Of a stretch of DNA of 64,000 bases, positions 16,292-63,308 are shown one piece after another. The position numbers and the translations under genes were made by a program. The DNA comes from a virus. The stretch covers positions 32,001 to 96,000 of IMG/VR virus record IMGVR_UViG_3300021090_000723. One strand, written 5' to 3'. The notes beneath the pieces are model-generated. The model was not told the DNA's origin, did no database searches, and saw only the letters and a list, made by a program, of their open reading frames with translations. Each line of letters opens with the position of its first letter. Position 1 is the first letter of the stretch.

Positions 16292-16381
16292 ATGCGCCTG
16301 TACGATTATTGCGTGTGGCTCGTGTTCGGGGGACCGCTTCTTCTCGCGATCCTGGTCGGCCTCATCAAGGTCTTCGCCTAG
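16292..16381 (+). CDS. Small hydrophobic peptide (29 aa), opposite strand to the late genes
   Basis: MRLYDYCVWLVFGGPLLLAILVGLIKVFA; AGGGA RBS; one TM helix. Confidence 0.55.
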   Translation: MRLYDYCVWLVFGGPLLLAILVGLIKVFA

Positions 16382-25300: not shown

Positions 25301-28300
25301 ACTTCTGGTTAAGCGCATCGCGGATGAGGTCGATGCCGCGGCGCGCGATCGACTTGCCCTCGGCGCGCGAGGTCGTCCAGTTGACCGACCAGGTCTGGGT
25401 GTTGGGCGCGGTGCCCTCCTGGGCAATGCGCACGTGCCAGGTCGCTTCCTTCGGCACGTATTCAACGATGGCCTCGGTCTCGAGCAGTTCGGAAATGAAC
25501 CCCTCGACGTCCGAGTTGGGAATCCACGGCGTGCCCATGCGCACCGCGATCTGAGACGGCTTCAGATCGACTGGCTGGACGACTTCGAGCGCCTTGACGT
25601 TCTCGGCCCACTCGGGCTCGCCCTTGGCAGCGTCACGCGCGAAGGCCAACTTTCCGCGCACGTTGCCCGAGAGATAGACCTCGGACGGCTCGTAGGCGCC
25701 GGTCGCCGGGTTCTTGAAGATGCGGCCCTTGAGTTCGTTGAGGAACGTGCTCGGCTGACGGCCCAGGATTTTTGCCATGTAGGGCACGTCGACTATGCCC
25801 TTCATGTTCATGGACGCGATCAGCGCCTCGTCCGGCGTGTTCACGCGGAGGATTTCGCGCGTCGGCTCGACCACGCGATCGGTGAAGATCGGGCCTTTGA
25901 TGCCCTCGTTCTTCTCTTCATCGAAGCGCTCGAGCGCGGAGACCAGCGCCGCGTCCGGATCGTCACGGAACGCCAGCATGTTCGGGTAGCGGCGGTATTC
26001 GCGCACCTCACCGTCCGGCATCGTGCGCCGGCTGATCTGAACCTGGTTGATGTAGCCGAACGCCTTGACGAACTGGGCGTAGAGTTTCCCCAGTTCCTTC
26101 TGCGGCGCGACCCACGGGGCCGTGCCCTTGCCTTCCCACTCGCCGCGCTGCGCGGTCAAGATCTCGCGGGCCTTGTCGCGGAGCCTGATGAGCAGGCGCA
26201 CGCGCCCGGCCTGGCCGTCGGAGAGTTCGACCGGCACGGAGGATTGCAGCACGCGCTGGAACAGCTTGCCGTCACGTTCGAAGAAGGCGTTGTCCTTCAC
26301 CGTGTCGGGCGGCGGCGCCAGGTCATCGTATGTGTCCACGTCCCCGGCCTCGGGATCGAAGCGGAGCGCGGACTTCTCCATCATGGCCTGGACGGCATTG
26401 GCGATCTTCTCGCGCAGGCCCGTTGCCGTTCCGGTAACGGTGTATTCGTCCTCGCGGTACATGCCGCGCGTGACGGCGTTCGTCCCCAGGATCATGTTGG
26501 GGTTGTCTTTGAAATACTGATTGACCGTCGCCGGGCTCGTGCCGACGCGGAACTCCTTGGCCTCCAGCCAATCCGGCTTCCCGGCAGGCTCGCCCTCCTT
26601 CCGCTTACGGATGAACAGGATGTCCGTGACGACTTGGGTCCCGGCGTTCTCCTTGAAGGCGGTGTTGGGGAGACGGATGGCGCCGATCAGGTCGCCGCCG
26701 GCGTCCCGGATCATGGTGCGCGCGGTCTTGTCCTGCGAGTCCATCGTGTAGCGGCTGGTCACGAGCGCAAGCACGCCGCCAGGTTTGACCAGCTTCAGGC
26801 TCTTGAAGATGAAGTAGTTGTGCAGGCTGAGCGGGCGGCCCTTATTGTACATCTTGTCGGCCGGGCGAATGTCGCCGAACGGCACGTTGCCGATGACAAG
26901 GTCCACGCTGTCTTCCGGAAGCGCGGTGTCCTCGAAGCCCTGCACGAAGATGCGCGCCTCGGGGTAGAGCGCTCGCGCGATCTTGCCGGTGACGTCGTCA
27001 AGCTCCACGCCGATGAACTTCGGATCGCTGCCCTTCGGGCGCATGCCCATGAAGTTGCCGATGCCCATGCCGGGTTCGAGCACGTTGCCCGAGCCGGTGA
27101 AGCCGAGTTCGGTCACGCCGTCCCAGATGCCGCGAACCACATCCTGGCTGGTGTAGTGCGCGTTGATGGTGGTCGCGCGAGCCGACGCGAACTGCTCCGG
27201 CGTCAGCATGGCCTTCAGCTGCTCGCGGTAGGGGATCAGGCCGTAGTCGAGCCCGCGGCCCTCATCGAAGATCTTGGCGAGGCCCGTGGCGCCCCAGCCC
27301 ACGTAATGGGCAAGCTGCTCCTGGTCCTCACGGCTGGCGAGTTGCCCGCCCTTCTCCAGGTCGAGAGCGACCCGGATGGCTTCGATGTTCTTGACGATGC
27401 GCTGGGCTGGACTGCCGGTGGCATAATCGGCGTCTTCAGCGATGCGGAAGTTTAGTCCTCGTATCCCCCGCTTGGCCCGATCCCCGAGGCTTCCCTCTCG
27501 CTCATCGGGAGATACTCCCTCAGGGCGTCCGACTCCGCCATCAGGAGGGCGCTCCGCTCCAGCTTGATCCGTCTCTCCAGAGGCTCGTCCTGGCTCACTT
27601 GCGGAAGTTGGCTGTTGACCCAGTTCGCTATCGATTCCGATAGGTCCTGGACCCTCTGCTCCAGCTTCCCCTCCGCCTTCAGGCCCGCGAACTCCTGTGG
27701 TCGGTGCACCCGCAGGTGCCCTTCCACCTTGCTCCGGTAGCTTTCCGGGCTGACCTTTTGCACGTTTTTCCCTTTCGAGCTCGGCCCAGCGCTTCGGAAT
27801 ATCGATCTTTTTGAGCGCTTCTTCAACTGCCTGCTTGGAGTCGGGCAGCGGCGTGTAGGTCTTTTCCTTGAGCGATCCGTCCTCGTTCCACTCCAGCTGG
27901 TCGAGCAGGCCGCGCCACATCAGGGCGAAATTGGCGCGCTCTTCCTCGGCGGGATAGGGCGTGCCGCGATAGCCGGCTTCCTTGGTCGTCTGGCCTTCCG
28001 CCACCCAGCCATTGACCAGGTAGGGCGAGGTCTGCCCCTTGGCGGCCAGTTCATCGTAGATGAAGGACTCGAACGAGCGCGCCCACAGTTCCTCGGGCCG
28101 CACCCAGTATTTGCCAAGCTCTTGGGCGTTGCGCTTGAACTTGGTCGTGAGCTTCGCGCTCCACCCCTCGTTCTGCCAAAGGTGGTCCACGTACTGCTCG
28201 GCGGTCTTGAGCGGGCCCAGGCCTTGCCTGCCCCGGATGTGCGACCGGCCGGTGAGCAGATTGTCGACCATCTTGATCGCACCCTCCACGTCCCAGGTGT

Positions 28301-31300
28301 GGGAGAGCGTGCCGTTGACGCTTGCGAGCAGGGCGCGCGCACTCTGACCGGCGGCCAGCAGCGCCTTCTTCTCGGCCTGGAGCGGCTTGACCTTGTCGGA
28401 CAACTCCATCGAGTTGATCGTGCCCTCGCGGTTCCGCTTCACCAGCGCCTCGATCTCCTTGTCGATCGCCGGGACCCGGACGCCGCCTGCGCGCAGGTTG
28501 AAGTCGAGCGCATGGCCCCATTCGTGCGACAGGGACCCGTCGCCCTTGGTCTTGGTCAGGTTGATGACGTTGGTGTCTGGCTCGTAGTGAGCGGAGCCGA
28601 ACCCAGATCCGCGCGAGCCGAACGCCAGGCCCAGCTTACCGCCGATGGAGATTGCCTTCGCTGGCACACCCATTATCTCGGCGAAGTCCATGAGCGCGTC
28701 GTAGGCGGCGTTGACGTGCGCCTGGCCCTCGCGGCCGGTGACCCAGTTCCCGAACTCGACGCCGCGGAAGCCGAAGGTCTTGCGGAAGTCCTCGGCCTTG
28801 ACGTTCTTGCCCGCCTTCCGGCGCTCGGGCAGGCCCGGGCGCGTGATGTCCTCGATCCGGATGCTCGGCCGCACGAGGGGCGTGGCGCGTGTCGGCATCG
28901 TGTTGTCGTCGCGGAAGTGGGGCAGGCCTTCGTCCAGGCGCCACAGGTTCGGCCACGAATAGTGGTGCAGGTACGGCCGCAACGTCTTCTGCGCCCAGTC
29001 CGTGGCGATGACGCGCGCCGACATGCCTTCCGGGCGCTGGACCTCTTTGACGATCAGGCGCTTGAGCGCGGCGTGGATGTCCTCGACGTTCTTCGCGCCG
29101 GCGAGCGCATCGCCCAGGATCTCCATCGCGCCGATGTATTCGGCGGCGTTCTCCAGGATGGTCTCGCGCTTCTCCTCCCAGCGCTTCTCCAGCGTCTTTC
29201 TGAACGGCGTGCGCCATTTGCCACGGCCGCCGCCCTGGTTCTTACCCTCCTGCTCGGTGAAGGTGACGAACGAGCGGGAGACGAAGTCGGCGAAGACGTG
29301 GGCGCCGGTCGTGGCGTCAGCCGCCAGGCGGGAGCGGAGGTCCCGCGCGTCCAGAGCCTGCTCGAGCATCTTGTCCAGATCCTCGATCTTCTCGACCTTG
29401 GCTTTGGCCTGGGCGCGCTTGCCCGCCATGGCCTCGCCCACGTCCGTCATCTTCGGCATGGGCGCGCGGCGGTCGGTGACCGGCTTCCTTGGTTCTTTGA
29501 CCGGCCTCTTCTCGGGCGCCTCGATTGTTTCACGTGAAACATCAACGGCCTGGGGCAGAATCGCGGTGGTCGTGTCGCCCTCTTCGATCCACCGTTTGAA
29601 GTCGGCCACGTTCATTTCGAGGCCGCCGTTCTTCCGGCGCTGCGGCCCCGAGCCGTCCGAGTACCCGGCGTCATAGACCGCGATGGCCTGCTCCGGGGTG
29701 TCGACCGCGGCGATGGCCTTGTGCTCATCGAACTTGCCGGTCTTCGGATCGTACTGATCGATGACGAAGACCTTGTCGCTCTTCAGGTTCGGTCCGAGGT
29801 AAATGTCCAGCTTTTCCTGCTGGTTAGGCGGGGCGTTCGGCTTCGCATCCGCACCGATCGAGCGCTTGATGTAGCCGTAGTCGGCCAGGATGTTGACGTT
29901 CGTCCAGATCGGCTTGCCGTCCTCGCCCTCGGGCCCAAGGCGATCCGTGCCCTTCGGCGTCTCGATAGTGATGTCCAGGCCGTTCCAGTTCTCGATGTGG
30001 CCCTTGGCGTAATTCCCAGCCTCGCGCTGCGCCTCGGTCGTCTCCTTGGCGACCGCGTCACGCGCCGGCTGGATGTCTTCCTCGGTCTCCGGACGCTTGA
30101 CGGGGTTGGTCTTGGTGCCTTCCGGCGCCCGGGCGACGTGCTTGATCTTCGCAAGCTGCTCTTTGGCGCTGGCGATGAGGCCGAGGGCGTCCCGCTTCGC
30201 AGAGTCGGGCCAGCTGCCCGACATTGCCCGCTCGACATAGCTGGTCACATAGGCCTTGGCTTCGTCCAGCGTGGCGAATTCGTTCGCGTGCGAGCCGCCC
30301 ATGCCGCCCGCTTGGCTGGTGATGTTGTACGAAATGCGCGGGACCGTGTAGCGGGCCTCCTGCGGGTCGTAGACGATCATAAACGCGAGGTTGCTGCTGC
30401 TCTTCTTCGCCTTGGCCGGGAGCAGTTTGCCGGTGTCGAGCACCACTTCGCCGCGCTCCATGACGGCCTCGTGCTCGTCCCGGGCGACCTTCTCGCGCGC
30501 CCTCCGGGCGTCGTGCTCGGCATCCTCGGCGGCGCGCTGGCTTTTGGCTTCCTTGGCGATCGTCGGCCACTTGTACTCAAGGTCGGACTGCTCGGCCTTC
30601 GCCTTCGCGATGTCCACTTTGTAGCGCTCGATCTGGCTCTTCCACGTGTCGAGGTTGATCTTGGATGGCTTCTTCGGTCCCGCCAGGGCCTCGTCCATGC
30701 GCTTCTGCGTCTCGGCCATGTTGTGCTGGTAGGCCGAGAGGTGGAATTCGCGCTGGCGGTAGTCGTCCAGATCCTGCGCCATCGGATGCTCGGGGGCTTC
30801 CGGCTGCTCGCGCTCCACCAGGTAGTCGCCAATGTCCTTGACCAGGTCCGGGAACTTCTTGCCGTACCACTCCAGGCGCAGGCCCTTGGCCGCGGCGCGC
30901 GCGGCGTAGATCGACTTGTCCCAGCCCGGCTCCGGGGTGAAGCGCTCTTCCTGCGCCTCTTCCTCGGCGCGATCGGCCTCCATCTGGACGATCTCGTCCG
31001 TGGTGGGCTCCATCACGTCTTCGCCGGACTTCTCGCCGGGCGCGAGTTCGCGCGCTGGCGGGGTTATGAGACCAGGCAGCGGCTCAACGGGACCTTCGCC
31101 TTCGCGTTGCGCCATGCGCCGGGCTTCATCGGCGCGCTCATCGGCAATGCGCGTTTCCAGCGCCGCGCGCATCAGCCCGGTTTTGGTGTCGTAGTTCCGG
31201 AGGATGTGCTCCTGGAACACATCGGCGGCTTCCACGCCGAACGAGTCGGCATAGGCGCCCCACCAGTTCACGAATTCCTCAGGGGCGGCGGTGAAGGCCT

Positions 31301-33665
31301 CCTTGGCCTCTTTATCGAGCCGGTCCTTGGCCTTGGCGTTCTTCGGCGGCTTGCCGGTGGCGGGATCGTTGCCCGAGTCGATGTAGGCCTGCGCCGCGCG
31401 CAGCTGGTTGATGGGCTCTTCGAAGTGCCGCAACGCCTCATCGTGGAAGGCGCGCAGCGTTTCGGTGCGCTCTTCCGGCGTCTCGGCCGGGTTCTCGTCC
31501 CAGAAGCCGGGGCGTCCGGCTTCGCGCAGCGCTTCATCCGCAGGCTCGGGGAACGTCTTCTTGAAGTCGAAGGGCAGTCGTTTGCCGCTCGACTTCTTGC
31601 CCTTTTCCTTGGCGAGATCGGCGGCCTCGCGCTCGATCTGGGCCATTTCCGCCTCGACGTCCTGGGCGGGCTTGGTGCCCGGCACGGTGAACGTCTCCTT
31701 GGGCGGCGTCTCCCTGATCCATTCCTCACTAGGCTCACCTGGCGGCTGGGTGAGATCGGCGCGCTTGACGTCGCCGGTCTTCACGTTGTGCCAGCCGATC
31801 TGGTTGTCCTCTTCGTCGAAGAGCGCTTGCCAGTCCTTGCCACGGGGCTTGGGCGGCATTTCTGCCTTCGGCGGCTGGGTTGGTGGCTTGGGCGGTGGCT
31901 CTGGAGCCTGTTCGGCCGCACCCGCTGGCGGCTCTCCTGGCGCGCCTGGGCGCTCCATCGTGGGCTCGACGCGCGGCTTTTCCGGCTCGCCCTCGCCCCG
32001 GACGAACGGGTGCGTGGCCGCCGCGATCGTGCCGCCCATCACGCCGCCGGTGAGGCCCGCGGCGATCACTGCGCGGGTGGCTTCACCGAACGTCATCTTC
32101 TCGTTCAGGATGCCCATGGAATAGCCGGTCTGGAGCACCTGGGTGAACATTTCCTGGATGCCTTCGGCGCCTGCCGCCTTGAGCGTGCGCGGCAGGAACT
32201 TCCCGCCCTCCTTGATGATGATCCCGAGCGGGATTTTCTCGCCGGCTGTTTCGGCGAAGGCCATGAACGCGCCGTCGAGCGCGGCCTGGGTGGGCGAGCG
32301 GCCGTTCTTGGCGGACTCGCTGTACTGCTCCAGGCCGACCTGGCTTCCCATCATGGCGAGGCCGATGGCCGGGCTTCTGGTCAGGATGGACGCGCCGACG
32401 GTCGCCAGCATGGGCACGCCGGACTCGATGGCGTTGAAGTAGACACCCTTGATGCTGAGTGGATCGAGGTCTTTCGGGGCGCTCTCCTCGAGATCCTTGA
32501 GCGCGGCGAAGGCGATCTTGCCGCCGATGGTGCTGCCAGCGTCCTTGACCGCCTTCTCGCGCGCGGCGAGCATGCCCTGGTACGCCTCTTCGACCTGTGG
32601 CGGCAGCTTGCCGGTGAACGGATTGACCTGTTCGATCGGATAAGGGACCGGGGCCTGGTCCATGGCGAGAATCGCGCCGCCGATCATGTTCTTCAGGTGC
32701 AGCGGCACGCGCTCGGCGGCCGCCATGGTCAGTTCACCGAAGCTGGGCCCGGGGTCCTTCTTGCCGATGCCCGCGATGAACGCGCGCGCCGCGCCGGCGC
32801 CGACGCCTTCCACGTCGGGTTGCTCGATGGGCTTGAACGGCTTCTGTTTGGCCGCGAACGCCTCGGCGGCCGCGGGCGTCTCGAACTTGCCCATGTGCTG
32901 GCCGGTCTGCTTGTAGCGCTCGATGATCGCTTCGTCTGACTCGCCCTCGGTCAGCTGCGGGAGCACGGTCTCCTTGAAGATGCCGTTCTCCGTGAACTCG
33001 AACGAGCGCGTGCCCGCAAAGTCGCCCTTGTAGTTGCCCGGTTCGAGCAGGCCCGGCTCCTGGCGCACGAAGTCCGGCTTGTCAGCGACCGCCTGCGGCG
33101 CAGCGGTGATCGGCTCTTCGGAAACGATCGCATACGGATCATCGCCGCCGGGCGGCGCAGCGGAGATCGCCGTCGGGTCGATCGGCTCTTCGGAAACGAT
33201 GGCATACGGGTCGTCCTGCGGCCCCTGAGACATTTGGACCACGCGCTGGACGTAGTCGTTCGTCTCCGGGAACGGGATCTGGGCGATGAACTCGGCTTCG
33301 CTGATCTCGCCCTTGCGCGGATCGCCCAGGCGGTTGAGCCAGCCTTCGAGCGCGCCCGGGCCAGCGTTGTAGGCCGCACCCGCGAGCGCCGGGCTTCCAT
33401 AGCGCTCAAGCATGGCGGCCGCATAGTCGACGCCTACGCGGTCAAGCTCTTCCGGAGTGTCGTTCGCCGCCGGGCGGACGCCAAAGCCCGGGTCCTTCGC
33501 GGTGCCCGGCATAACCTGCATTTCGGAGCGCGCGCCCTTGGGAGAGACCGCGTTGATCGGGCTCGCTTCCGCGCGCCGGATGATGCTGGGGAAATCGACA
33601 GGCGTGGGCGCGAGCCCTCCGCCGTCCATCGGTTCTTCCGAGACGACGTCCCATTCGTTGACCAT
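16365..33665 (-). CDS. Giant polyvalent virion/ejection protein (5766 aa): SLT transglycosylase, PPase-like, LPD1-like, N6-adenine MTase + SNF2 helicase (DarB-like), JAB-like, zincin, LPD38-like
   Basis: AVSPKGA..EMQVMP/AAYNAGPG/ET.DYV (SLT); ADYGYI...GAD..D.Y.GP...DEHK (PPase); FGFRGVEFGNW..HEWGHALD; VLEPGMGIGNF and GNVPFG (MTase); VGAGKT, DEAH, TGTPISN, QREGRIERQGN (SF2); HHNH.....S.AD (JAB); HEVIH; IEEIQSDWHQ; NFNRRG..LYLFYNASIQG. Confidence 0.9.
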   Translation of the reverse strand: MVNEWDVVSEEPMDGGGLAPTPVDFPSIIRRAEASPINAVSPKGARSEMQVMPGTAKDPGFGVRPAANDTPEELDRVGVDYAAAMLERYGSPALAGAAYNAGPGALEGWLNRLGDPRKGEISEAEFIAQIPFPETNDYVQRVVQMSQGPQDDPYAIVSEEPIDPTAISAAPPGGDDPYAIVSEEPITAAPQAVADKPDFVRQEPGLLEPGNYKGDFAGTRSFEFTENGIFKETVLPQLTEGESDEAIIERYKQTGQHMGKFETPAAAEAFAAKQKPFKPIEQPDVEGVGAGAARAFIAGIGKKDPGPSFGELTMAAAERVPLHLKNMIGGAILAMDQAPVPYPIEQVNPFTGKLPPQVEEAYQGMLAAREKAVKDAGSTIGGKIAFAALKDLEESAPKDLDPLSIKGVYFNAIESGVPMLATVGASILTRSPAIGLAMMGSQVGLEQYSESAKNGRSPTQAALDGAFMAFAETAGEKIPLGIIIKEGGKFLPRTLKAAGAEGIQEMFTQVLQTGYSMGILNEKMTFGEATRAVIAAGLTGGVMGGTIAAATHPFVRGEGEPEKPRVEPTMERPGAPGEPPAGAAEQAPEPPPKPPTQPPKAEMPPKPRGKDWQALFDEEDNQIGWHNVKTGDVKRADLTQPPGEPSEEWIRETPPKETFTVPGTKPAQDVEAEMAQIEREAADLAKEKGKKSSGKRLPFDFKKTFPEPADEALREAGRPGFWDENPAETPEERTETLRAFHDEALRHFEEPINQLRAAQAYIDSGNDPATGKPPKNAKAKDRLDKEAKEAFTAAPEEFVNWWGAYADSFGVEAADVFQEHILRNYDTKTGLMRAALETRIADERADEARRMAQREGEGPVEPLPGLITPPARELAPGEKSGEDVMEPTTDEIVQMEADRAEEEAQEERFTPEPGWDKSIYAARAAAKGLRLEWYGKKFPDLVKDIGDYLVEREQPEAPEHPMAQDLDDYRQREFHLSAYQHNMAETQKRMDEALAGPKKPSKINLDTWKSQIERYKVDIAKAKAEQSDLEYKWPTIAKEAKSQRAAEDAEHDARRAREKVARDEHEAVMERGEVVLDTGKLLPAKAKKSSSNLAFMIVYDPQEARYTVPRISYNITSQAGGMGGSHANEFATLDEAKAYVTSYVERAMSGSWPDSAKRDALGLIASAKEQLAKIKHVARAPEGTKTNPVKRPETEEDIQPARDAVAKETTEAQREAGNYAKGHIENWNGLDITIETPKGTDRLGPEGEDGKPIWTNVNILADYGYIKRSIGADAKPNAPPNQQEKLDIYLGPNLKSDKVFVIDQYDPKTGKFDEHKAIAAVDTPEQAIAVYDAGYSDGSGPQRRKNGGLEMNVADFKRWIEEGDTTTAILPQAVDVSRETIEAPEKRPVKEPRKPVTDRRAPMPKMTDVGEAMAGKRAQAKAKVEKIEDLDKMLEQALDARDLRSRLAADATTGAHVFADFVSRSFVTFTEQEGKNQGGGRGKWRTPFRKTLEKRWEEKRETILENAAEYIGAMEILGDALAGAKNVEDIHAALKRLIVKEVQRPEGMSARVIATDWAQKTLRPYLHHYSWPNLWRLDEGLPHFRDDNTMPTRATPLVRPSIRIEDITRPGLPERRKAGKNVKAEDFRKTFGFRGVEFGNWVTGREGQAHVNAAYDALMDFAEIMGVPAKAISIGGKLGLAFGSRGSGFGSAHYEPDTNVINLTKTKGDGSLSHEWGHALDFNLRAGGVRVPAIDKEIEALVKRNREGTINSMELSDKVKPLQAEKKALLAAGQSARALLASVNGTLSHTWDVEGAIKMVDNLLTGRSHIRGRQGLGPLKTAEQYVDHLWQNEGWSAKLTTKFKRNAQELGKYWVRPEELWARSFESFIYDELAAKGQTSPYLVNGWVAEGQTTKEAGYRGTPYPAEEERANFALMWRGLLDQLEWNEDGSLKEKTYTPLPDSKQAVEEALKKIDIPKRWAELEREKRAKGQPGKLPEQGGRAPAGAPTTGVRGPEGGGEAGAEGPGPIGIDSELGQQPTSASEPGRASGETDQAGAERPPDGGVGRPEGVSPDEREGSLGDRAKRGIRGLNFRIAEDADYATGSPAQRIVKNIEAIRVALDLEKGGQLASREDQEQLAHYVGWGATGLAKIFDEGRGLDYGLIPYREQLKAMLTPEQFASARATTINAHYTSQDVVRGIWDGVTELGFTGSGNVLEPGMGIGNFMGMRPKGSDPKFIGVELDDVTGKIARALYPEARIFVQGFEDTALPEDSVDLVIGNVPFGDIRPADKMYNKGRPLSLHNYFIFKSLKLVKPGGVLALVTSRYTMDSQDKTARTMIRDAGGDLIGAIRLPNTAFKENAGTQVVTDILFIRKRKEGEPAGKPDWLEAKEFRVGTSPATVNQYFKDNPNMILGTNAVTRGMYREDEYTVTGTATGLREKIANAVQAMMEKSALRFDPEAGDVDTYDDLAPPPDTVKDNAFFERDGKLFQRVLQSSVPVELSDGQAGRVRLLIRLRDKAREILTAQRGEWEGKGTAPWVAPQKELGKLYAQFVKAFGYINQVQISRRTMPDGEVREYRRYPNMLAFRDDPDAALVSALERFDEEKNEGIKGPIFTDRVVEPTREILRVNTPDEALIASMNMKGIVDVPYMAKILGRQPSTFLNELKGRIFKNPATGAYEPSEVYLSGNVRGKLAFARDAAKGEPEWAENVKALEVVQPVDLKPSQIAVRMGTPWIPNSDVEGFISELLETEAIVEYVPKEATWHVRIAQEGTAPNTQTWSVNWTTSRAEGKSIARRGIDLIRDALNQKSTVISWQDSEGKTHTDMNATIVAQEKQNDIKERFSKWIWKDPERGARLSRFYNDNFNNLRVATFNGDHLTLPGSSSTIELRSTQKKAVWRYLVSGNTLLDHLVGAGKTFTAIAAAMEAKRIGLLSKPLFSVPNHMLEQFSREFMQLYPNASILVADERAFAGDNRRRFVARAAAGNWDAIIMTHSSFERVGMSAKFQADYIRDEIAEYADLIRAARETDTGGRSPTVKQLEAAKKRREEKLRELMQAKDKDRGLSFEEMGVDGIFVDEAHLFKNLEFATKITNMNPPSSQRAFDLYLKTKYIDKMTPGRGLMFMTGTPISNSMAEMYTMQRYLQPRGLAERGLSHFDAWASTFGDTVTQAEITPEGGKAMLKTRFARFRNIPELISMYRQFSDLVSKDDLIATGQVKLPKISGGGPKTIIVPASDALKAYIAEIGERAEAVRKREVTPDEDNMLLISTDGRKASLDLRVVDPAARKEKVRKASEVASNAARIYKAGAKEKHTQIIFCDMSVPSNVAYSIYRDIKEELVKKGVNANDVAFVQDANTDQKKANLFADVRAGRKRILLGSTEKMGIGTNVQDRLKALHHVDPSWRPSDIEQREGRIERQGNTNEEIDLFRYVTEGSFDAYMWQTVERKARFINQIKRGDPSVREAEDIDEQVLSFAEAKALAAGNPLILDKAKADSDVDRLSRLRGAHYDNIHEMEWQIHRLPGEIAGMEEARGRVKADHAAYLERKDKPHYTILGTVYEKRVDASKALADIIEKAWNLQKSKNEAQGRKRNAEIEDIPIGKMYGFPISVEVDGYYQPQAVIHGKMTDKVELDLQSLKLGAISRIENFFKSRPGEIDYRQAKIDTAKKKLVDFKELVKVPFEREDQYQAALKRQRKIDQALGLIEADPQPVAGAPEPDLPPRRSAGFILSEAPGEGLGLAPPARPPRDEGMLARRIVEGNSDLADDLGKFVAKKKAKTPAAVNVAIGDWLRAFGERTKTEAAVAYDPATQTVIAAETSGKDTYVNLRGKIEDALSKPDARIVFHHNHTMPYGLSFADLTLLDLPGLDWMIAHTTEGQWHAARLTPETRRAFADLDLTLWSSPSDILNKMLQESQNAQGRVGRSLIRERGLDRNLAVANFSHNFAVGLARAGLIDYRSSVVVPESLAATFDTMAQAGAEAIASPLKAIGVVNVSDRGTAPTQFADGIAEILGEDQGLAVEPRGGAGEGARPEGVGRGLERLRLPQAPPVIETGDGVTFTFSPEFEAKREQLAADLRAYLVNRNLPLAVRVADAIADPEGHEADGHFDITKNLITIALDTKDPFGTITHEVIHGLRNLGFFTKSEWATLEAAAKDKWKRTFDIVGKYYKPDVQTEETIAFAAQNYEPSNEFAKAGLATKVLQRVRNFFEGLRNFFRGRGFQTPEDIFKRIESGRIGKRGKAGPTRSEAKFALKPQPPAPFFSTLARTIEASKQEKASGIQWQAFIKNARGITKDETEWTGVNEWLESQQGPVTKQALLDFIRENNVQIEEVEKGRAPGDDEGPYPENIEDWLPDEERTIQPEGQRYYSEMAFDADDASVTFHYDQRGVVTRVNAIRAGRELGDFGDFIEAREAIHRDAGIVAEGGATKFESQTLPGGENYRELLLTLPQIGVPFDPAKVRIERNRRSTTQGDVTVFYGDHKVGTWDDPIVLNSVTKKYEGPNDAHWIDVMRRRYPGDRSLAIDALSGQFRSGHFDEANILAHVRFKDRADADGKRVLFIEEIQSDWHQKGRRQGYSVKETRSPVFSIFDDQGELVGTRPTLDQAQEFIRDKHGRRPAWNRDDQAPMDTTNWTIKEGEAIEKRTGVPDAPFKSTWHEIALKRMLRYAAENGYDRLAWTTGAQQAERYNLAKHVNSLRLTDNVSGGIGRPRMDGPFERGHLIAYGKRNEEAINRQIESRDDLAELVGAELADKLLAVTPVEGRSAGLGVRVREISGLDLTVGGEGMKGFYDRIVPQFLNRYAKKWDAKVGTTKIDTGKESEPSWTVAETHPQKKQGVIDVHSLDVTPAMRESVMEGQGLFARRMPPGANAFTMFTDSPQPSVVDYLRNSNLSLMERLKGAASLSAINASFDKWRVGFQDRYLKVARMQAAIEQMLGRPLTEEENAYLAEELSSGRKGAKLEDLFERQIRPLVLAMHERGISREELETFLYARHAPERNARINEINPKFREEGIAGSGMSDEDARGIMDEVDKTGRRADFDALAGMVDDVLAFALNTRVEAGLMSEEQAEAWRATYRDYVPLRGVAELDPEVEADRPRPGKGFDVKGKESHRAFGRQSPARDILAYAFMQAEEAIIRGENNRIGNAIYELAKAAPNENFWKVDKVAMRPVWIKARQEVQYWPVRRILAEDAPYTLSTKIDGQEHRITFNRNNPVARDLAQGLKGLGQDQISLLIRNFGAINRILSHVNTTLNPEFVITNAFRDAQTALSNIQAHGDIKGITKGTVKDYRKALVASSRSAFKAEPGKTLMPWMAKDQAEWDRWAQEFRENGGRVYFNQMEDVLELRKRLDGQMREIGTSKLNPIMAMKTLGRIIENTNIGVENAIRLSAYKNARERGFTPAKAASLAKNLTVNFNRRGSWGPLMNSLYLFYNASIQGTATLLTAWKSPRVRKVAAFAVLTGFLLDFLNAFVSDEDDDGQLLYDKVTPFDKSRNLIVMTPSEGGVAAKIPLPYGYNIFYGVGRSIAEVMRGKDPLESAGNLAITIMDSFNPVGGAQNLLNMIAPTTMDPVVDLFMNKDYAGRPIAPEQSQYGPQVPNSQRYWNSVSPAYKAVTDFLSTASGGTGVEPGLIEISPEWLDYGFGVAWGAAGTFYERNFLDLPMKFADPTSTITFNDIPFVRRVVTSKPPWIDKATFYERINKIEQSRAYARDYQREGRRPEARGFVQENRAMLSLYNDANNARTELSEIRASRAQAKMALEQGRMARPRYNEQVRILNEAEERIIRMFNAEYLERTRRRP
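21620..21769 (-). CDS. Nested overprinted small gene (49 aa) in +1 frame of the giant ORF
   Basis: GGAG-7 nt-ATG; MYLIEEPPPLSSPMALRRFLARTKDLPSSPEVEQARARAQKALEEALKD; GC3 bias shifts to this frame. Confidence 0.6.
   Translation of the reverse strand: MYLIEEPPPLSSPMALRRFLARTKDLPSSPEVEQARARAQKALEEALKD
27452..27763 (-). CDS. Nested overprinted gene (103 aa) in +1 frame of the giant ORF; TnpV-like helical protein
   Basis: AAGGGA RBS before GTG; Y.....HL..HRP.....L...GKL pattern; nested frame is GC3-rich while the host frame is a Gly/Pro/Glu linker. Confidence 0.75.
   Translation of the reverse strand: MQKVSPESYRSKVEGHLRVHRPQEFAGLKAEGKLEQRVQDLSESIANWVNSQLPQVSQDEPLERRIKLERSALLMAESDALREYLPMSEREASGIGPSGGYED
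29526..29541. promoter_or_regulatory. parS: Perfect chromosomal-type parS site
   Basis: TGTTTCACGTGAAACA, 16/16 match to the bacterial parS consensus palindrome; encodes VSRET in the giant ORF. Confidence 0.85.
33109..33215. repeat. Direct repeat (about 35 nt, 72-nt period) encoding DDPYAIVSEEPI twice
   Basis: ATCGGCTCTTCGGAAACGAT at 33109 and 33181; a third degenerate copy (WDVVSEEP) at the N-terminus. Confidence 0.8.
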
Positions 33666-38215: not shown

Positions 38216-38240
38216 AACGAGACGGTGACGATGCGAAAGG

Positions 38241-38315
38241 TGGCAGCTGCTGAGGGAGTCGAACCCTACGTCCCCGGAGTCAAAGTCCGGTGCCCTACCG
38301 TTAGACCAAGCAGCC
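38241..38315 (-). tRNA. trnQ: tRNA-Gln(UUG)
   Basis: CCGGA-CT TTG AC-TCCGG; TTCGA T-loop; CCA end. Confidence 0.92.
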
Positions 38316-38316
38316 G

Positions 38317-38392
38317 TGGCGCGCCCAGGGGGAGTCGAACCCTCCGTTTGCCGATTGAGAATCGGCGTTCCTGACCGTTAGAAGATGGGCGC
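38317..38392 (-). tRNA. trnE: tRNA-Glu(CUC)
   Basis: GCCGA-TT CTC AA-TCGGC; CCA end. Confidence 0.92.
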
Positions 38393-38394
38393 AT

Positions 38395-38468
38395 TGGCGC
38401 AGCTGCGGGGAATCGAACCCCGGTTGTCGGAGTGAAAATCCGCTCTCCGGCCACTAGAGGACAGCTGC
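38395..38468 (-). tRNA. trnE: tRNA-Glu(UUC)
   Basis: GCGGA-TT TTC AC-TCCGA; CCA end. Confidence 0.9.
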
Positions 38469-38471
38469 GAT

Positions 38472-38545
38472 TGGCGAGGGTGCGACGAATCGAACGCCGG
38501 TCATCGGGTTTGGAAGCCGAGGCCCTACCACTGGGCGACACCCCC
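38472..38545 (-). tRNA. trnW: tRNA-Trp(CCA)
   Basis: TCGGC-TT CCA AA-CCCGA (C31-C39 mismatch); G73; CCA end. Confidence 0.85.
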
Positions 38546-38550
38546 TGAAG

Positions 38551-38624
38551 TGGTGCGGACGGAGAGGATCGAACTCTCACCCCCGGGTTGGAAGCCCGGT
38601 ACTCTGCCGTAGAGCTACGTCCGC
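38551..38624 (-). tRNA. trnG: tRNA-Gly(UCC)
   Basis: CCGGG-CT TCC AA-CCCGG; A73; CCA end. Confidence 0.92.
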
Positions 38625-38625
38625 G

Positions 38626-38696
38626 TGCGGGTCGCCGGAATCGAACCGGCATCAGCGGAGTGGCACTCCGCGGCCCAGCCAATAGACCAGACCCGC
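38626..38696 (-). tRNA. trnG: tRNA-Gly(GCC), no encoded CCA
   Basis: GCGGA-GT GCC AC-TCCGC. Confidence 0.88.
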
Positions 38697-38701
38697 AAAA
38701 A

Positions 38702-38776
38702 TGGACATGCGCGCCGGAATCGAACCGGCTCATCGCGATTTTGCAGACCGCCGCGTTCCCACCTCGCCCGCGCATG
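38702..38776 (-). tRNA. trnC: tRNA-Cys(GCA)
   Basis: GCGGT-CT GCA AA-ATCGC; U73; CCA end. Confidence 0.9.
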
Positions 38777-38819
38777 CAAGCATCCAGTTCAGTTTGCGAA
38801 ATTTCGATATTTCGATATT

Positions 38820-38893
38820 TGGCGACCCCACATGGATTTGAACCACGATTTCCAGAGTCAGAGTCTGGCGGCCTACCGTTGGCCGATGGAGCC
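38820..38893 (-). tRNA. trnQ: tRNA-Gln(CUG)
   Basis: CCAGA-CT CTG AC-TCTGG; CCA end. Confidence 0.92.
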
Positions 38894-38900
38894 TTGGAAA

Positions 38901-38977
38901 TGGTTGCGGGGGTCGGAATCGAACCGACGACGCCTGCGCCTTCAACGCAGCGCTCTACCGGACTGAGCTACCCCGCC
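38901..38977 (-). tRNA. trnF: tRNA-Phe(GAA)
   Basis: CTGCG-TT GAA GG-CGCAG; G1-A72 mismatch; CCA end. Confidence 0.9.
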
Positions 38978-38995
38978 AAGAGGCAGCGCGTTGGC

Positions 38996-39043
38996 TTATC
39001 GCCAACAACCTCGTTCGGGAAATCGTTGCTGTCGATTGAGCAT
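38996..39043 (-). CDS. tRNA-block leader peptide D: MLNRQQRFPERGCWR
   Basis: ATG CTC AAT CGA CAG CAA CGA TTT CCC GAA CGA GGT TGT TGG CGA TAA; lists N,Q,Q,F,E,G,C,W, the amino acids of the surrounding tRNA block. Confidence 0.8.
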   Translation of the reverse strand: MLNRQQRFPERGCWR

Positions 39044-39048
39044 GCCAA

Positions 39049-39123
39049 TGGCTGCGGAGGACGGGCTCGAACCGCCGACCTCGCACTTAACAGGCGCTCG
39101 CTCTACCACTGAGCTACTCCGCA
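39049..39123 (-). tRNA. trnN: tRNA-Asn(GUU)
   Basis: AGCGC-CT GTT AA-GTGCG; G73; CCA end. Confidence 0.92.
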
Positions 39124-39147
39124 CTGCCGTCTCCATTGGTTGGCCCA

Positions 39148-39195
39148 CCAGGTGGGCGAGGCGCCGGTTTTGTCAACCGGGCCCCGAAATGTCAA
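39148..39195 (-). promoter_or_regulatory. Putative promoter of tRNA block D
   Basis: Two TTGACA hexamers (39195-39190 and 39176-39171); -10 poorly conserved. Confidence 0.55.
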
Positions 39196-39208
39196 GCAGA
39201 GTGTAAAG

Positions 39209-39284
39209 TGGCGTCCCCGGTAGGAATCGAACCCACGTCTGGCCGGATTAGAAGTCCGGTGCCTTTCCGCTAGGCTACGGGGAC
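39209..39284 (-). tRNA. trnR: tRNA-Arg(UCU)
   Basis: CCGGA-CT TCT AA-TCCGG; CCA end. Confidence 0.92.
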
Positions 39285-39286
39285 GT

Positions 39287-39361
39287 TGGAGGACCAGGCG
39301 GGGCTCGAACCCGCAACCGTTCGATTAAAAGTCGACTGCACCACCATCGTGCTGCTGGTCC
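39287..39361 (-). tRNA. trnK: tRNA-Lys(UUU)
   Basis: GTCGA-CT TTT AA-TCGAA; C8; CCA end. Confidence 0.9.
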
Positions 39362-39362
39362 G

Positions 39363-39434
39363 TGAACCGGGTGGGACTTGAACCCACAACCATCGGATTA
39401 AGAGTCCGCCGCACCACCATCGTGCTGCCGGTTC
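39363..39434 (-). tRNA. trnK: tRNA-Lys(CUU), no encoded CCA
   Basis: GCGGA-CT CTT AA-TCCGA; D-arm identical to Lys(UUU). Confidence 0.88.
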
Positions 39435-39465
39435 AAAACGATCGCCGACTATAGTCGGCGGAAGT

Positions 39466-39540
39466 TGGCGTGCGCGGAGGGAGTCGAACCCACAGCTTCC
39501 AGATTCGTAATCTGGCGCTCTTCCGTTGAGCTTCGCGCAC
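39466..39540 (-). tRNA. trnR: tRNA-Arg(ACG)
   Basis: CCAGA-TT ACG AA-TCTGG; A8; CCA end. Confidence 0.92.
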
Positions 39541-39544
39541 AAAC

Positions 39545-39619
39545 TGGCGTTCCCGGGTGGATTCGAACCACCGCCCTTCAGATCCGGAATCTGACGCTCC
39601 TCCGCTGAGCCACGGGAAC
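39545..39619 (-). tRNA. trnR: tRNA-Arg(CCG)
   Basis: TCAGA-TT CCG GA-TCTGA; CCA end. Confidence 0.92.
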
Positions 39620-39649
39620 AAGTCAAAAATCGCCACATCTGACGTAAAC

Positions 39650-39724
39650 TGGCGCGCGTTAGGGGTATCGAACCCCTGACCTTCCGGTTGACAACCGGGT
39701 GCTCTCCCTCTGAGCTAAACGCGC
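39650..39724 (-). tRNA. trnD: tRNA-Asp(GUC)
   Basis: CCCGG-TT GTC AA-CCGGA; G73; CCA end. Confidence 0.92.
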
Positions 39725-39728
39725 AGTC

Positions 39729-39805
39729 TGGTCGCAGGGGCTGGGATCGAACCAGCGCATGACGCCCTTATGAGGGGCGGGCCTTTCCAGCTTGGCTACC
39801 CTGCG
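39729..39805 (-). tRNA. trnM: tRNA-Met(CAU) elongator (or Ile2)
   Basis: CGCCC-CT CAT AA-GGGCG; paired 1:72; CCA end. Confidence 0.85.
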
Positions 39806-39877
39806 TCGTTCTGGATGGTCTCGAACCACCGTCCTCACGATTATCGGTCGCGCGCTCTACCACTGAGCTACAGAACG
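39806..39877 (-). tRNA. trnI: tRNA-Ile(GAU), no CCA, abuts tRNA-Met with zero spacer
   Basis: CGCGA-CC GAT AA-TCGTG (C33). Confidence 0.85.
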
Positions 39878-39881
39878 TCAT

Positions 39882-39956
39882 TGGTACGCGCAGAGGGGAT
39901 CGAACCCACCGTTTCCGGGTCCACAACCCAGCGTCCTTCCATTGGACGATGCGCGC
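39882..39956 (-). tRNA. trnH: tRNA-His(GUG), alphaproteobacterial type
   Basis: CTGGG-TT GTG GA-CCCGG; no G-1; G1-U72; A73; CCA end. Confidence 0.92.
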
Positions 39957-39960
39957 GAAT

Positions 39961-40037
39961 TGGTCTGAGCGGCAGGATTCGAACCTGCGTGTACCTGGTC
40001 CCAAACCAGGTGCGTGACCAGGCTACGCTACGCTCAG
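39961..40037 (-). tRNA. trnP: tRNA-Pro(UGG)
   Basis: CCTGG-TT TGG GA-CCAGG; C1-G72; CCA end. Confidence 0.92.
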
Positions 40038-40042
40038 GAAAA

Positions 40043-40119
40043 TGGTCGCCCCTGCACGGAATCGAACCTGCGACCTCCCGGGTGTAGGCCGGGCACTCTA
40101 CCAGCTGAGCTAAGGGGCG
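40043..40119 (-). tRNA. trnV: tRNA-Val(UAC)
   Basis: CCCGG-CC TAC AC-CCGGG (C33); one-base T-stem bulge; CCA end. Confidence 0.85.
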
Positions 40120-40171
40120 GCGCGGTGAACGGGGGAGCGGGCGTGGGCCCGCGGTGAGGGACGAGGTCGCC

Positions 40172-40249
40172 TTAGGCGACGACTATCCTATGCGGTCGAA
40201 TGGACATTCGCCGCTTTCTTGGATCTCGTGGTTTGAGAACCGTGCTCAT
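40172..40249 (-). CDS. tRNA-block leader peptide C: MSTVLKPRDPRKRRMSIRPHRIVVA
   Basis: ATG AGC ACG GTT CTC AAA CCA CGA GAT CCA AGA AAG CGG CGA ATG TCC ATT CGA CCG CAT AGG ATA GTC GTC GCC TAA; contains V,P,H,I,M,D,R,K, all downstream tRNA identities. Confidence 0.8.
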   Translation of the reverse strand: MSTVLKPRDPRKRRMSIRPHRIVVA

Positions 40250-40257
40250 GGCCGGGG

Positions 40258-40286
40258 TGTATGACGGATCATCTTGTTGTCGTCAA
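40258..40286 (-). promoter_or_regulatory. Promoter of tRNA block C (leaderless start)
   Basis: TTGACG-17 nt-CATACA, 8 nt before the leader ATG. Confidence 0.65.
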
Positions 40287-40294
40287 CAACGTGA

Positions 40295-40381
40295 TGGTCG
40301 GAGCGGAGGGATTCGAACCCTCTAGCCGCAAGCGGACCGGATTTACAGTCCGGCGCAACCCACCGTCTTTGCCGCGCTCCG
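40295..40381 (-). tRNA. trnY: tRNA-Tyr(GUA)
   Basis: CCGGA-CT GTA AA-TCCGG; long variable arm; C1-G72; CCA end. Confidence 0.92.
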
Positions 40382-40417
40382 TATATCAAACAGGCCGTTT
40401 CGGTATACGTTTGAGAT

Positions 40418-40499
40418 TGGTAGGCCCGGAGAGATTTGAACTCTCACGCCGAGGCGCCTGCTTCTGAGGCAGGTGTGTCTGCCGTTCCACCACGGGCCC
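40418..40499 (-). tRNA. trnL: tRNA-Leu(CAG)
   Basis: CCTGC-CT CAG AA-GCAGG; variable arm; CCA end. Confidence 0.92.
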
Positions 40500-40501
40500 A
40501 C

Positions 40502-40578
40502 TGGTAGGCGCGGAGAGACTCGAACTCTCAGATGTCGGGATTTAACGCCGATGCGTCTGCCGATTCCGCCACGCGCCC
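40502..40578 (-). tRNA. trnL: tRNA-Leu(UAA) lacking the long variable arm
   Basis: Leu-type D-arm GTGGCGGAATCGGCAGACGC; TCGGC-GT TAA AT-CCCGA; 5-nt variable loop; CCA end. Confidence 0.8.
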
Positions 40579-40585
40579 GAGAAGC

Positions 40586-40627
40586 TCAGGCAAGTCGTAA
40601 GGTGCGGTATCGTAGGTTCGTGCGCAT
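40586..40627 (-). CDS. tRNA-block leader peptide B: MRTNLRYRTLRLA
   Basis: ATG CGC ACG AAC CTA CGA TAC CGC ACC TTA CGA CTT GCC TGA; Leu x3 and Tyr ahead of Leu, Leu, Tyr tRNAs. Confidence 0.75.
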   Translation of the reverse strand: MRTNLRYRTLRLA

Positions 40628-40633
40628 GCGATC

Positions 40634-40666
40634 CTTCTTGCATTTCCCCGCGCGGCTGTCTACAGA
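40634..40666. promoter_or_regulatory. Overlapping divergent promoters for tRNA blocks A (+) and B (-)
   Basis: + strand TTGCAT-17-TACAGA (40638-40666); - strand TAGACA (40662-40657) with weak -10. Confidence 0.55.
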
Positions 40667-40675
40667 GCGGCCACC

Positions 40676-40738
40676 ATGTTCCGAACGCGAACCACTCGAG
40701 CGGCACGAGCCGCAACACGATCAAGTTCCTCTTCCTGA
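40676..40738 (+). CDS. tRNA-block leader peptide A: MFRTRTTRAARAATRSSSSS
   Basis: ATG TTC CGA ACG CGA ACC ACT CGA GCG GCA CGA GCC GCA ACA CGA TCA AGT TCC TCT TCC TGA; Thr/Ala/Ser ahead of Ser, Ser, Ala, Thr tRNAs. Confidence 0.82.
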   Translation: MFRTRTTRAARAATRSSSSS

Positions 40739-40741
40739 TAC

Positions 40742-40829
40742 GGAAGGGTGGCAGAGTGGTTTATTGCGGCGCACTGCTAACGCGCCGGACCTGAAGGTCC
40801 CGTAGGTTCGAATCCTATCCCTTCCGCCA
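40742..40829 (+). tRNA. trnS: tRNA-Ser(GCU)
   Basis: GCGCA-CT GCT AA-CGCGC; long variable arm; G73; CCA end. Confidence 0.92.
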
Positions 40830-40834
40830 ATCTC

Positions 40835-40923
40835 GGATGGGTCCGCTGCGTGGGCGGCAACCGGCTTCGAATACCGGCATGGGGTCCGTCAGGGCAGGGG
40901 TTCAACTCCTCACCCATCCGCCA
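40835..40923 (+). tRNA. trnS: tRNA-Ser(CGA), probable 8/4 fold
   Basis: CCGGC-TT CGA AT-ACCGG; acceptor GGATGGGT/ACCCATCC (8 bp); 4-bp T-stem; G73; CCA end. Confidence 0.8.
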
Positions 40924-40942
40924 ATCTTCCAGATCAGGATAA

Positions 40943-41017
40943 GGGCTCGTAGCTCAGCGGGAGAGCACCGGCTTTGCATACCGGGTGTCGTGGGTTCGAT
41001 TCCCACCGGGTCCACCA
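40943..41017 (+). tRNA. trnA: tRNA-Ala(UGC)
   Basis: CCGGC-TT TGC AT-ACCGG; G3-U70; CCA end. Confidence 0.92.
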
Positions 41018-41027
41018 GTTTGGAAAT

Positions 41028-41104
41028 GCCGGCGTAGCTCAGATGGTAGAGCAGTGTCTTTGTAATTCACAGGTCGCGGGTTCGAGTCCTCGCCGCCGGC
41101 TCCA
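41028..41104 (+). tRNA. trnT: tRNA-Thr(UGU), weak anticodon stem
   Basis: GTGTC-TT TGT AA-TTCAC; GCCGGCG acceptor; CCA end. Confidence 0.82.
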
Positions 41105-41108
41105 AACC

Positions 41109-41429
41109 TCACCCGAGGGTGCAGATCGTGAATCGACCGCGCTTCGAGAACAGCTGCTTGGTCGCGTCCGTGTACCGCAGCTGGACGTGCCAGTTACCGG
41201 CTTGATCGAGTTGTCCGATGGTGAAGGTGTAGGTCACATACTCGTTGGGGAGGAACGTGCCGACCTCCGTCACGATTTCGAGCGCGCCCAGTTCCACGGC
41301 GGGGTTGGTCACCACCAGCGTGGTGTTGTCCGGCTTGGTGAAGGTGAGTTCGAGCCCGGTGAAGGCTGACATATCGTAGCCGACACCGAAGCGGATCTGG
41401 ACGCCGAAACTACCAACGAAAATGGTCAT
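41109..41429 (-). CDS. Small beta-sandwich virion protein (BppU-like)
   Basis: L.FTKPD.T, Y.F..G.LDQAG.W..Q motif; GAGGGG RBS. Confidence 0.6.
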   Translation of the reverse strand: MTIFVGSFGVQIRFGVGYDMSAFTGLELTFTKPDNTTLVVTNPAVELGALEIVTEVGTFLPNEYVTYTFTIGQLDQAGNWHVQLRYTDATKQLFSKRGRFTICTLG

Positions 41430-63231: not shown

Positions 63232-63308
63232 TGGTTGCGCAGGAGGGATTTGAACCCCCGACCTTCAGCTTATGAGGCTGACGAGCTACCGGGCTGCTCC
63301 ACCGCGCC
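63232..63308 (-). tRNA. trnM: tRNA-Met(CAU), initiator-like
   Basis: fMet-type D-arm TGGAGCAGCCCGGTAGCTCG; TTCAAAT T-loop; 1:72 mismatch; TCAGC-CT CAT AA-GCTGA; CCA end. Confidence 0.9.

Follow-up and report, generated by a model that had tools for sequence, protein, structure and literature searches.

In the best described ribosome-mediated attenuators, such as trpL of E. coli and the thr and ilvGMEDA leaders, a short open reading frame (ORF) at the 5′ end of the transcript is enriched in the codons to be sensed, and the position of the ribosome picks among competing RNA helices. In trpL, the stop codon is found at the tip of the 1:2 hairpin, and the thr and ilv leaders sense several amino acids at once. 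There are also leader ORFs without intrinsic terminator, represented by tnaC of E. coli and mgtL of Salmonella; in the case of tna, C-rich RNA starts just past the leader stop codon. No publications on leader peptides before tRNA genes were found in the literature, and phage tRNA arrays are usually seen as passive cargo for codon usage or anti-defence. The nearest published case is the trn operon of Anabaena, a long tRNA array induced under translational stress (PMC8421152) and placed under a protein repressor, TrcR (PMC10272220). Here we describe four short ORFs, each ending in a hairpin, that stand ahead of blocks of tRNA genes in an uncultured 105-kb phage. The window analyzed is a stretch of 64,000 nucleotides (nt), positions 32,001 to 96,000 of IMG/VR record IMGVR_UViG_3300021090_000723, and is part of a single 104,903-base-pair (bp) contig of about 64% G+C from a freshwater-sediment metagenome. 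It carries 28 tRNA genes in 38241-41104, of which 24 on the minus strand and four on the plus strand diverge from a 163-nt spacer (Table 1; coordinates are those of the window). The blocks preceded by leaders A to D encode Ser, Ser, Ala, and Thr tRNAs (block A), Leu, Leu, and Tyr tRNAs (block B), 11 tRNAs for eight amino acids (block C), and tRNAs for Phe, Gln, Cys, Gly, Trp, and Glu (block D).

The reading preferred here, to which we assign a probability of roughly 45%, is that the hairpins function within four translated leaders, through which tRNA supply is gauged without a terminator, hairpins A and B competing with the acceptor stem of the first tRNA of their blocks. Translation, timing, and an effect on RNase P are what we infer from sequences, statistics, predicted folds, and parallels in other phages. 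As in the trp, thr, and ilv leaders, a short 5′ ORF is enriched in the codons that would be sensed, and ribosome position would select among competing helices, here in predicted folds; the stop at the tip of the first hairpin recalls trpL, and the joint sensing of several amino acids recalls thr and ilv. Unlike these leaders, the present ones have no 3:4 terminator with a U tract, the controlled genes are tRNAs, the competing helix in A and B is an acceptor stem, and the ORFs are punctuated by CGA-X pairs. Since no intrinsic terminator (GC hairpin plus U tract) is found between leader and tRNAs after any of the four leaders, they are not filed as classical attenuators despite their similar working. 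The lack of an intrinsic terminator is shared with tnaC and mgtL, and, as in tna, C-rich RNA starts just after the stop of leader C, whereas the RNA here is short and structured and its acceptor-strand arms are without counterpart in tnaC or mgtL. Like the Anabaena trn operon, whose expression responds to translation trouble, the locus is an accessory tRNA array; that operon differs in being controlled by the protein repressor and not by a leader ORF or RNA switch. The terminator-less form, the acceptor-strand arms, and evidence for the generality of stop codons in hairpins are new.

All four leader stop codons are located inside hairpins at the positions given by the initial annotation, which was made from the letters alone: the loop holds the stop in A, C, and D, whereas in B it is part of the 5′ arm. 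The 5′ arm of hairpin A (40729-40735) consists of the last Ser codons, its loop (40736-40741) is opened by the TGA at 40736-40738, and its 3′ arm (40742-40748) is exactly bases 1-7 of tRNA-Ser(GCU), that is, the whole 5′ acceptor strand, as had been claimed. In hairpin B, the TGA (40588-40586) lies within the 5′ arm, outside the loop, and the 3′ arm closes with bases 1-4 of tRNA-Leu(UAA) (40578-40575), so that the inclusion of the first bases of this tRNA was also read correctly. Hairpin C is lengthened by an outer helix in the minimum-energy fold, and hairpin D gains an outer helix of 5 bp stopping 2 nt short of tRNA-Phe. Predicted energies of the four range from -5.8 to -8.6 kcal/mol. As in known attenuators, the stop is placed inside the first hairpin or at its tip, and the 5′ arm of this hairpin is inside the ORF.

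Genome-wide, 254 of 3923 stop triplets (6.5%) are wholly contained in hairpins of 6 bp or more, and four out of four leader stops correspond to P ~1.8e-5. Hairpins cover 10-34% of bases in the spacers as against 8-9% in the genome. When only the long spacers are considered, six of 18 stop triplets are in hairpins, and four of these six are the leader stops (hypergeometric p ~0.005). As for the acceptor strands, 0.27% of genome positions carry a 7-nt stretch that exactly forms the 3′ arm of a hairpin, and at 0.95% of positions the first 4 nt are covered by a hairpin of 7 bp or more; overlap with the acceptor strand at two of the five block-heading tRNAs has a p of order 1e-3. The four hairpins are therefore non-random, and chance is unlikely. 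Two further candidate decoys for acceptor strands, a copy of the tRNA-Val 5′ strand matching at 6/7 positions after hairpin C and an 8-bp pairing (two G-U) with bases 4-11 of tRNA-Phe in D, were not beyond chance by rough estimate and were not used.

The mini-ORFs themselves look like real, translated genes. CGA triplets occur 14 times in frame across the four leaders and once in each other frame (binomial ~1e-5), and their frequency is 192 per 1000 codons, 17-fold above the 11 per 1000 of long ORFs. Of 20 CGA-rich mini-ORFs beginning with ATG in the 105-kb genome, four are leaders A-D, within roughly 500 nt of spacer. Each leader holds every amino acid of its own block, for which dinucleotide shuffles give P values of 0.57, 0.36, 0.084, and 0.0027 (joint ~5e-5), and the cognate codon is present in the own leader for 22 of the 27 block tRNAs. 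For example, 15 of the 16 codons at positions 6-21 of ORF C are decoded by tRNAs of its own block. The codon after each CGA specifies a block amino acid or, in D, is the stop, with a joint chance of ~0.01 estimated given the ORF compositions. Furthermore, an AAGGA-like Shine-Dalgarno sequence is found 5 nt upstream of ORF B, and the ATG of ORF D is 6 nt past tRNA-Asn. A short, codon-enriched ORF at the head of the transcript leader is thus present, as in ribosome-mediated attenuators, while the tRNA array of Ruegeria phage RpAliso, a negative control, is without such ORFs. Inosine-adenosine wobble decoding of CGA is reportedly inefficient in E. coli. CGA is decoded via this wobble, which stalls yeast ribosomes (PMC4408800), and a CGA in the P site may sharpen the sensing of the codon that follows.

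All four hairpins are present in the minimum-energy folds of the leaders. When the first tRNA is included, the hairpin conformer is predicted to beat the acceptor-stem conformer by 5.9 (A) and 10.4 (B) kcal/mol, and the pair probability of both hairpins is 0.97-0.99 at each nascent RNA length tested. A ribosome footprint was then imposed codon by codon on the folds of leader plus first tRNA, folding with and without such a footprint having been proposed earlier as a check. In this model, hairpin A is opened only with the A site on codons 15-18 or later, and the acceptor stem of tRNA-Ser is formed in full (7/7) only with the A site on codons 15-18 of ORF A, made up of the final CGA plus the three initial Ser codons, among them AGT, the one codon that is read by tRNA-Ser(GCU). 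Leader C switches between near-isoenergetic folds, and the model is uninformative for D. The initial annotation had proposed that ribosome position at the stop controls a structural switch acting through Rho loading, pausing, or RNase P access, with no preference among the three. The idea of a switch is partly supported by the non-random hairpins, the marks of translation, and the modelled competition in A and B, where hairpin and acceptor stem compete in the predicted folds, but C and D offer no clear alternative helix.

Table 1. Coordinates of leaders, hairpins, tRNA genes, and other features, in the window unless another record is named.
Feature	Position	Strand	Remarks
Leader ORF A	40676..40738	+	20 codons + TGA; five in-frame CGA; contains Ser, Ala, Thr of block A
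Leader ORF B	40586..40627	-	13 codons + TGA; two in-frame CGA; contains Leu, Tyr
Leader ORF C	40172..40249	-	25 codons + TAA; all eight amino acids of its 11-tRNA block
Leader ORF D	38996..39043	-	15 codons + TAA; four in-frame CGA; all six block amino acids
Hairpin A	40729-40748	+	7 bp (one G-U), 6-nt loop
Hairpin B	40591-40575	-	7 bp (one G-U), 3-nt loop
Hairpin C	core 40180-40166, whole 40158..40188	-	6 bp; triloop is TAA
Hairpin D	core 39007-38989, whole 38980..39012	-	6-7 bp; TAA in 5-nt loop
Minus-strand tRNA genes	38241..40578	-	24 genes (blocks B, C, Asn, D)
Plus-strand tRNA genes	40742..41104	+	four genes (block A)
C-rich tract	40120..40165	-	hairpin C to tRNA-Val; 59% C, 22% G
Weak terminator-like site	39443..39460	-	7-bp GC hairpin + short T run, between two block C tRNAs, without ORF
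Second weak terminator-like hairpin	39631-39644	-	with T run, within block C
Gap between divergent ATGs of A and B	40628..40675	.	
Putative back-to-back promoters			overlap the A/B gap and reach past it; read from sequence
Putative promoter A	-35-like 40638-40643, -10-like 40661-40666	+	
Putative promoter B	-35-like 40662-40657, -10-like 40639-40634	-	
Putative promoter of leader C	40258..40286	-	TTGACG 40286-40281, 17 nt, -10-like 40263-40258; ATG 8 nt on
phiCbK-family attenuator	L144 (phiCbK):5427-5589	-	matching stretches in L146-L154

A parallel is found in the phiCbK family of phages (Dolichocephalovirinae), with a leaderless ORF. In Caulobacter phage phiCbK, a unit comprises a TTGACA promoter, an ATG 7 nt past the -10 box, a 32-codon ORF, and an annotated terminator, and continues with an unannotated tRNA-Tyr-like gene followed by Phe, Val, Ile, Ile, Val, Gln, and Gln tRNAs. 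The unit was compared across ten phages of this family, in most records of which the ORF over the attenuator match is unannotated. The sensing half of the ORF consists almost only of Tyr, Arg, Gln, Phe, Val, Ile, and Asn, the amino acids of the block, and their order is shuffled from phage to phage. Pairing in helices 1:2 and 3:4 amounts to 95.6%, and seven pairs show changes on both sides, a level that none of 500 shuffles reaches; in the 2:3 antiterminator, pairing is 97%, and three such pairs occur. Judging from these alignments, the unit is a classical attenuator ahead of tRNA genes. In eight of nine aligned phages, the stop codon of its ORF is found in a hairpin loop closed by 5 bp or more, with six or seven different stem sequences, against a background of 16-19%; the tenth phage, BL9, has a stop hairpin likewise by reading of its sequence. 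This hairpin is 25-30 nt ahead of the terminator and contacts neither terminator nor tRNA. As a side observation, the tRNA-Tyr(GTA)-like gene (L144:5300-5385, minus strand) has a long variable arm, lies between the terminator and tRNA-Phe, and was missed by ARAGORN, and a tRNA-Tyr is annotated at the matching place in the record of Brevundimonas phage Gurke.

A further ORF of phiCbK, gp083 (45 amino acids, L144:7253-7390, minus strand), is rich in Ser, Ala, Thr, Leu, Pro, and Lys, has its stop at a hairpin apex, and is followed by a terminator and then by two Pro, two Lys, three Leu, and two Ser tRNAs. This ORF has the look of another inventory leader. Because the stop is in a hairpin in the phiCbK family, in gp083, and in trpL, this arrangement is a recurrent, selected feature of ribosome-read leaders, and its recurrence elsewhere supports the view that the hairpins of the present leaders are functional. 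The window shares with the phiCbK-family attenuator a TTGAC-type -35 box and an ATG a few bases past the -10 box (both boxes putative in the window), an Arg-punctuated ORF whose alphabet is that of the downstream block, and a stop in the loop of a small hairpin. Unlike the leaders here, the phiCbK-type leaders have covarying 1:2, 2:3, and 3:4 helices with a T tract, their stop hairpin is apart from terminator and tRNA unlike those of A and B, and their ORF segment mimicking the terminator 3′ arm (2:3) was not found in the window. DNA similarity between the window and the phiCbK family is confined to the tRNAs.

In the preferred reading, each hairpin would take the part that the "1:2" hairpin has in classical leader-peptide attenuators. 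Because its 5′ arm is built from the last codons, it would be open only as long as the ribosome sits on the final part of the ORF. For A and B, the first tRNA supplies its 5′ acceptor strand as the 3′ arm, and the competing helix would be the acceptor stem of that tRNA, so that a terminator would be unnecessary. If the ribosome follows RNA polymerase closely and exits early, the hairpin would shut before the 3′ strand of the tRNA is synthesized, and the precursor would be trapped in a non-cloverleaf fold, presumably a poor substrate for RNase P. A ribosome delayed by a CGA-X pair, or by a codon for a scarce tRNA, would cover or melt the 5′ arm once the 3′ strand exists, and the tRNA could fold. 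Without a ribosome, the 5′ strand would stay trapped, as with a fast ribosome. A delay at any point in the ORF would thus license folding, giving the response a homeostatic sign to which every codon contributes. C and D have a stop-loop hairpin of the kind kept in the phiCbK-family attenuators, and its role may be that of a pause or an insulator. As to the regulated step in A and B, the predicted folds favour tRNA folding and access of RNase P.

A more specific form of this mechanism, a leaderless mini-ORF written in block codons, paced by CGA-X pairs and ending in a mimic of the 3′ acceptor strand of the first tRNA, with the ribosome as a timer whose delay alone lets the tRNA fold and mature, so that control would fall on folding and RNase P access and not on transcription termination, is possible but somewhat doubtful as a whole. 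The locus adds evidence that phages meter their tRNA supply via ribosome-read leaders. If the acceptor-stem competition is true, a switch inside the acceptor stem of the first tRNA would be a new coupling of translation to RNA maturation, in a compact and testable system of about 150 nt of leader plus one tRNA, and it would explain the recurrence of rare CGA codons in such leaders. Stop codons in hairpins have now been seen in trpL and three unrelated leader sets, and this feature could be used to look for attenuators that are still undiscovered.

Several points weigh against the view that the hairpins are parts of supply-sensing leaders. Leader codons are decoded by the phage tRNAs in 49 of 69 cases, which does not exceed the baseline (46 of 61), and the Ser codons making up arm 1 of hairpin A are not decoded by the phage's own Ser tRNAs. 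The acceptor stem of B is formed at just one modelled ribosome position. The nearest-neighbour folding omits tRNA tertiary structure and modifications, so the sequestered fold is probably overstated. Hairpins C and D contact no tRNA and are left unexplained by an acceptor-stem switch, and of each block only the first tRNA would be under this switch, while the ORFs list whole blocks. The promoters and transcript starts are guesses; a strict sigma-70 scan gave zero promoters. Finally, the statistics and folds of hairpins A-D come from one genome.

Control of whole blocks would result from Rho-dependent attenuation. As in tnaC and mgtL, a ribosome on the leader would mask or block C-rich RNA and, on its exit, Rho would stop transcription of the whole block, with the hairpins tuning how much single-stranded RNA is exposed. 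This would fit the block-wide codon lists as well as the lack of intrinsic terminators after the leaders. The absence of U-tract terminators, noted earlier for the locus, indeed holds beside the leaders; it does not hold inside block C, where two weak terminator-like hairpins occur, no more than in shuffled sequence. The resemblance of the C-rich sequence after C to a rut site, also put forward in the initial annotation, stands in that 40120-40165 is the most C-rich of all 46-nt windows in the genome, but the tract is short (46-52 nt), contains a 6-bp GC hairpin (40152-40137), and is predicted to be about half paired, which makes it a weak rut candidate. Stretches from ATG to tRNA have C/G ratios of 1.6-2.0 in A and B, and D is without C bias. 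The available RNA, 49-130 nt, is below the usual requirement of Rho, a ribosome stalled in ORF C would leave the tract exposed and give the wrong sign of regulation, and the two exact acceptor-strand 3′ arms are left unaccounted for, so that Rho-dependent attenuation appears unlikely.

The same two arms are unaccounted for if the hairpins are RNA polymerase pause sites or barriers to ribosome movement after termination, keeping ribosome and polymerase in step and leaving tRNA folding unaffected. The trp 1:2 hairpin, with the stop at its tip, is the classical pause hairpin, and the stop hairpin of the phiCbK family is conserved despite touching neither terminator nor tRNA; without a terminator or another downstream decision point, however, there is nothing to time here, and we regard this role as quite unlikely. 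Or the hairpins may be incidental or unrelated to translation, arising from codon choice and A/T-rich loops, as elements of RNA processing or stability, or as relics of tRNA duplication. Hairpins do occur in spacers without ORFs (39460-39443, and two ahead of tRNA-Asn), 16-19% of all stop triplets fall within a hairpin loop when stems of 5 bp or more are counted, and arm 1 of A resembles a tRNA 3′ acceptor strand, as a duplication relic would. This origin is very unlikely in view of the four-of-four occurrence (2e-5 genome-wide, ~0.005 within spacers), the rarity of acceptor-strand arms, and the retention of the feature with different stems in another phage family. Palindromes acting in DNA, whether bound as operators by a dimeric protein or used by a virion RNA polymerase as hairpin promoters of the N4 type, are the least probable, to the point of being hardly credible. 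N4 early promoters are hairpins with 6-7-bp stems and 3-nt loops, a shape that several of the present stems have, whereas the four palindromes have no common sequence, and a start ~12 nt downstream would land inside the tRNAs of A and B. The N4 idea was dropped because the giant 5766-amino-acid ORF of the window, the only ORF scanned for an RNA polymerase domain, was found to be a polyvalent protein without one.

Relatives with this array are present in sequencing runs. In contig L068, obtained from a metagenome scan, one flanking gene is 84% identical and the flanking genes are the same, and the array is replaced by a 264-amino-acid ORF (L068:8752-9711 versus window 38225-41112). Because a protein gene occupies the place of the 28 tRNAs, the array is a module gained or lost inside the virion gene cluster. 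Short contigs with 85-98% identity over the spacers are found in three other sequencing studies; no RNA run is listed among the sequencing runs holding the array. Among the few differences listed, a related strain (run X4) has a 9-nt, frame-keeping insertion within ORF D at 39017 and a 2-nt deletion (40579-40580) at the junction of hairpin B and tRNA-Leu, after which a 6-bp hairpin is still possible; these differences are in line with a kept ORF D frame and B hairpin, but are suggestive only. IMG/VR searches by single flanking proteins found no relative, three DNA patterns gave no match in IMG/VR, and a spurious ORF across the divergent spacer, used as a query, gave none either. In an alignment-based scan, 67 loci with at most 48% identity were collected, none of them with a tRNA array beside the flanking gene. 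An Rfam scan of the spacers matched only tRNAs, and the spacers are therefore not recognizable as decayed tRNAs or known RNAs.

Other features of the array and the contig are as follows. The spacer ahead of tRNA-Asn (39124-39208, minus strand) has two TTGACA boxes and two 6-bp hairpins with no ORF terminating inside, and an ATG at 39136 opens a frame, the one also used by ORF D, that continues into the tRNA. Between tRNA-Cys and tRNA-Gln, a 43-nt spacer (38777-38819, minus strand) contains a tandem 9-nt repeat and a palindrome without ORF. A second, solitary tRNA-Met(CAT) gene is located 22 kb away from the array (63232-63308, minus strand). The contig encodes an SU10-type adaptor protein, for which the closest cultured relatives are 62-kb Caulobacter podophages with 46% identity. 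In the 5766-amino-acid ORF (16365-33665, minus strand), Pfam detects SLT transglycosylase, InPase, LPD1, and LPD38 domains together with a weak Eco57I-methylase-like stretch and a weak helicase C-terminal domain.

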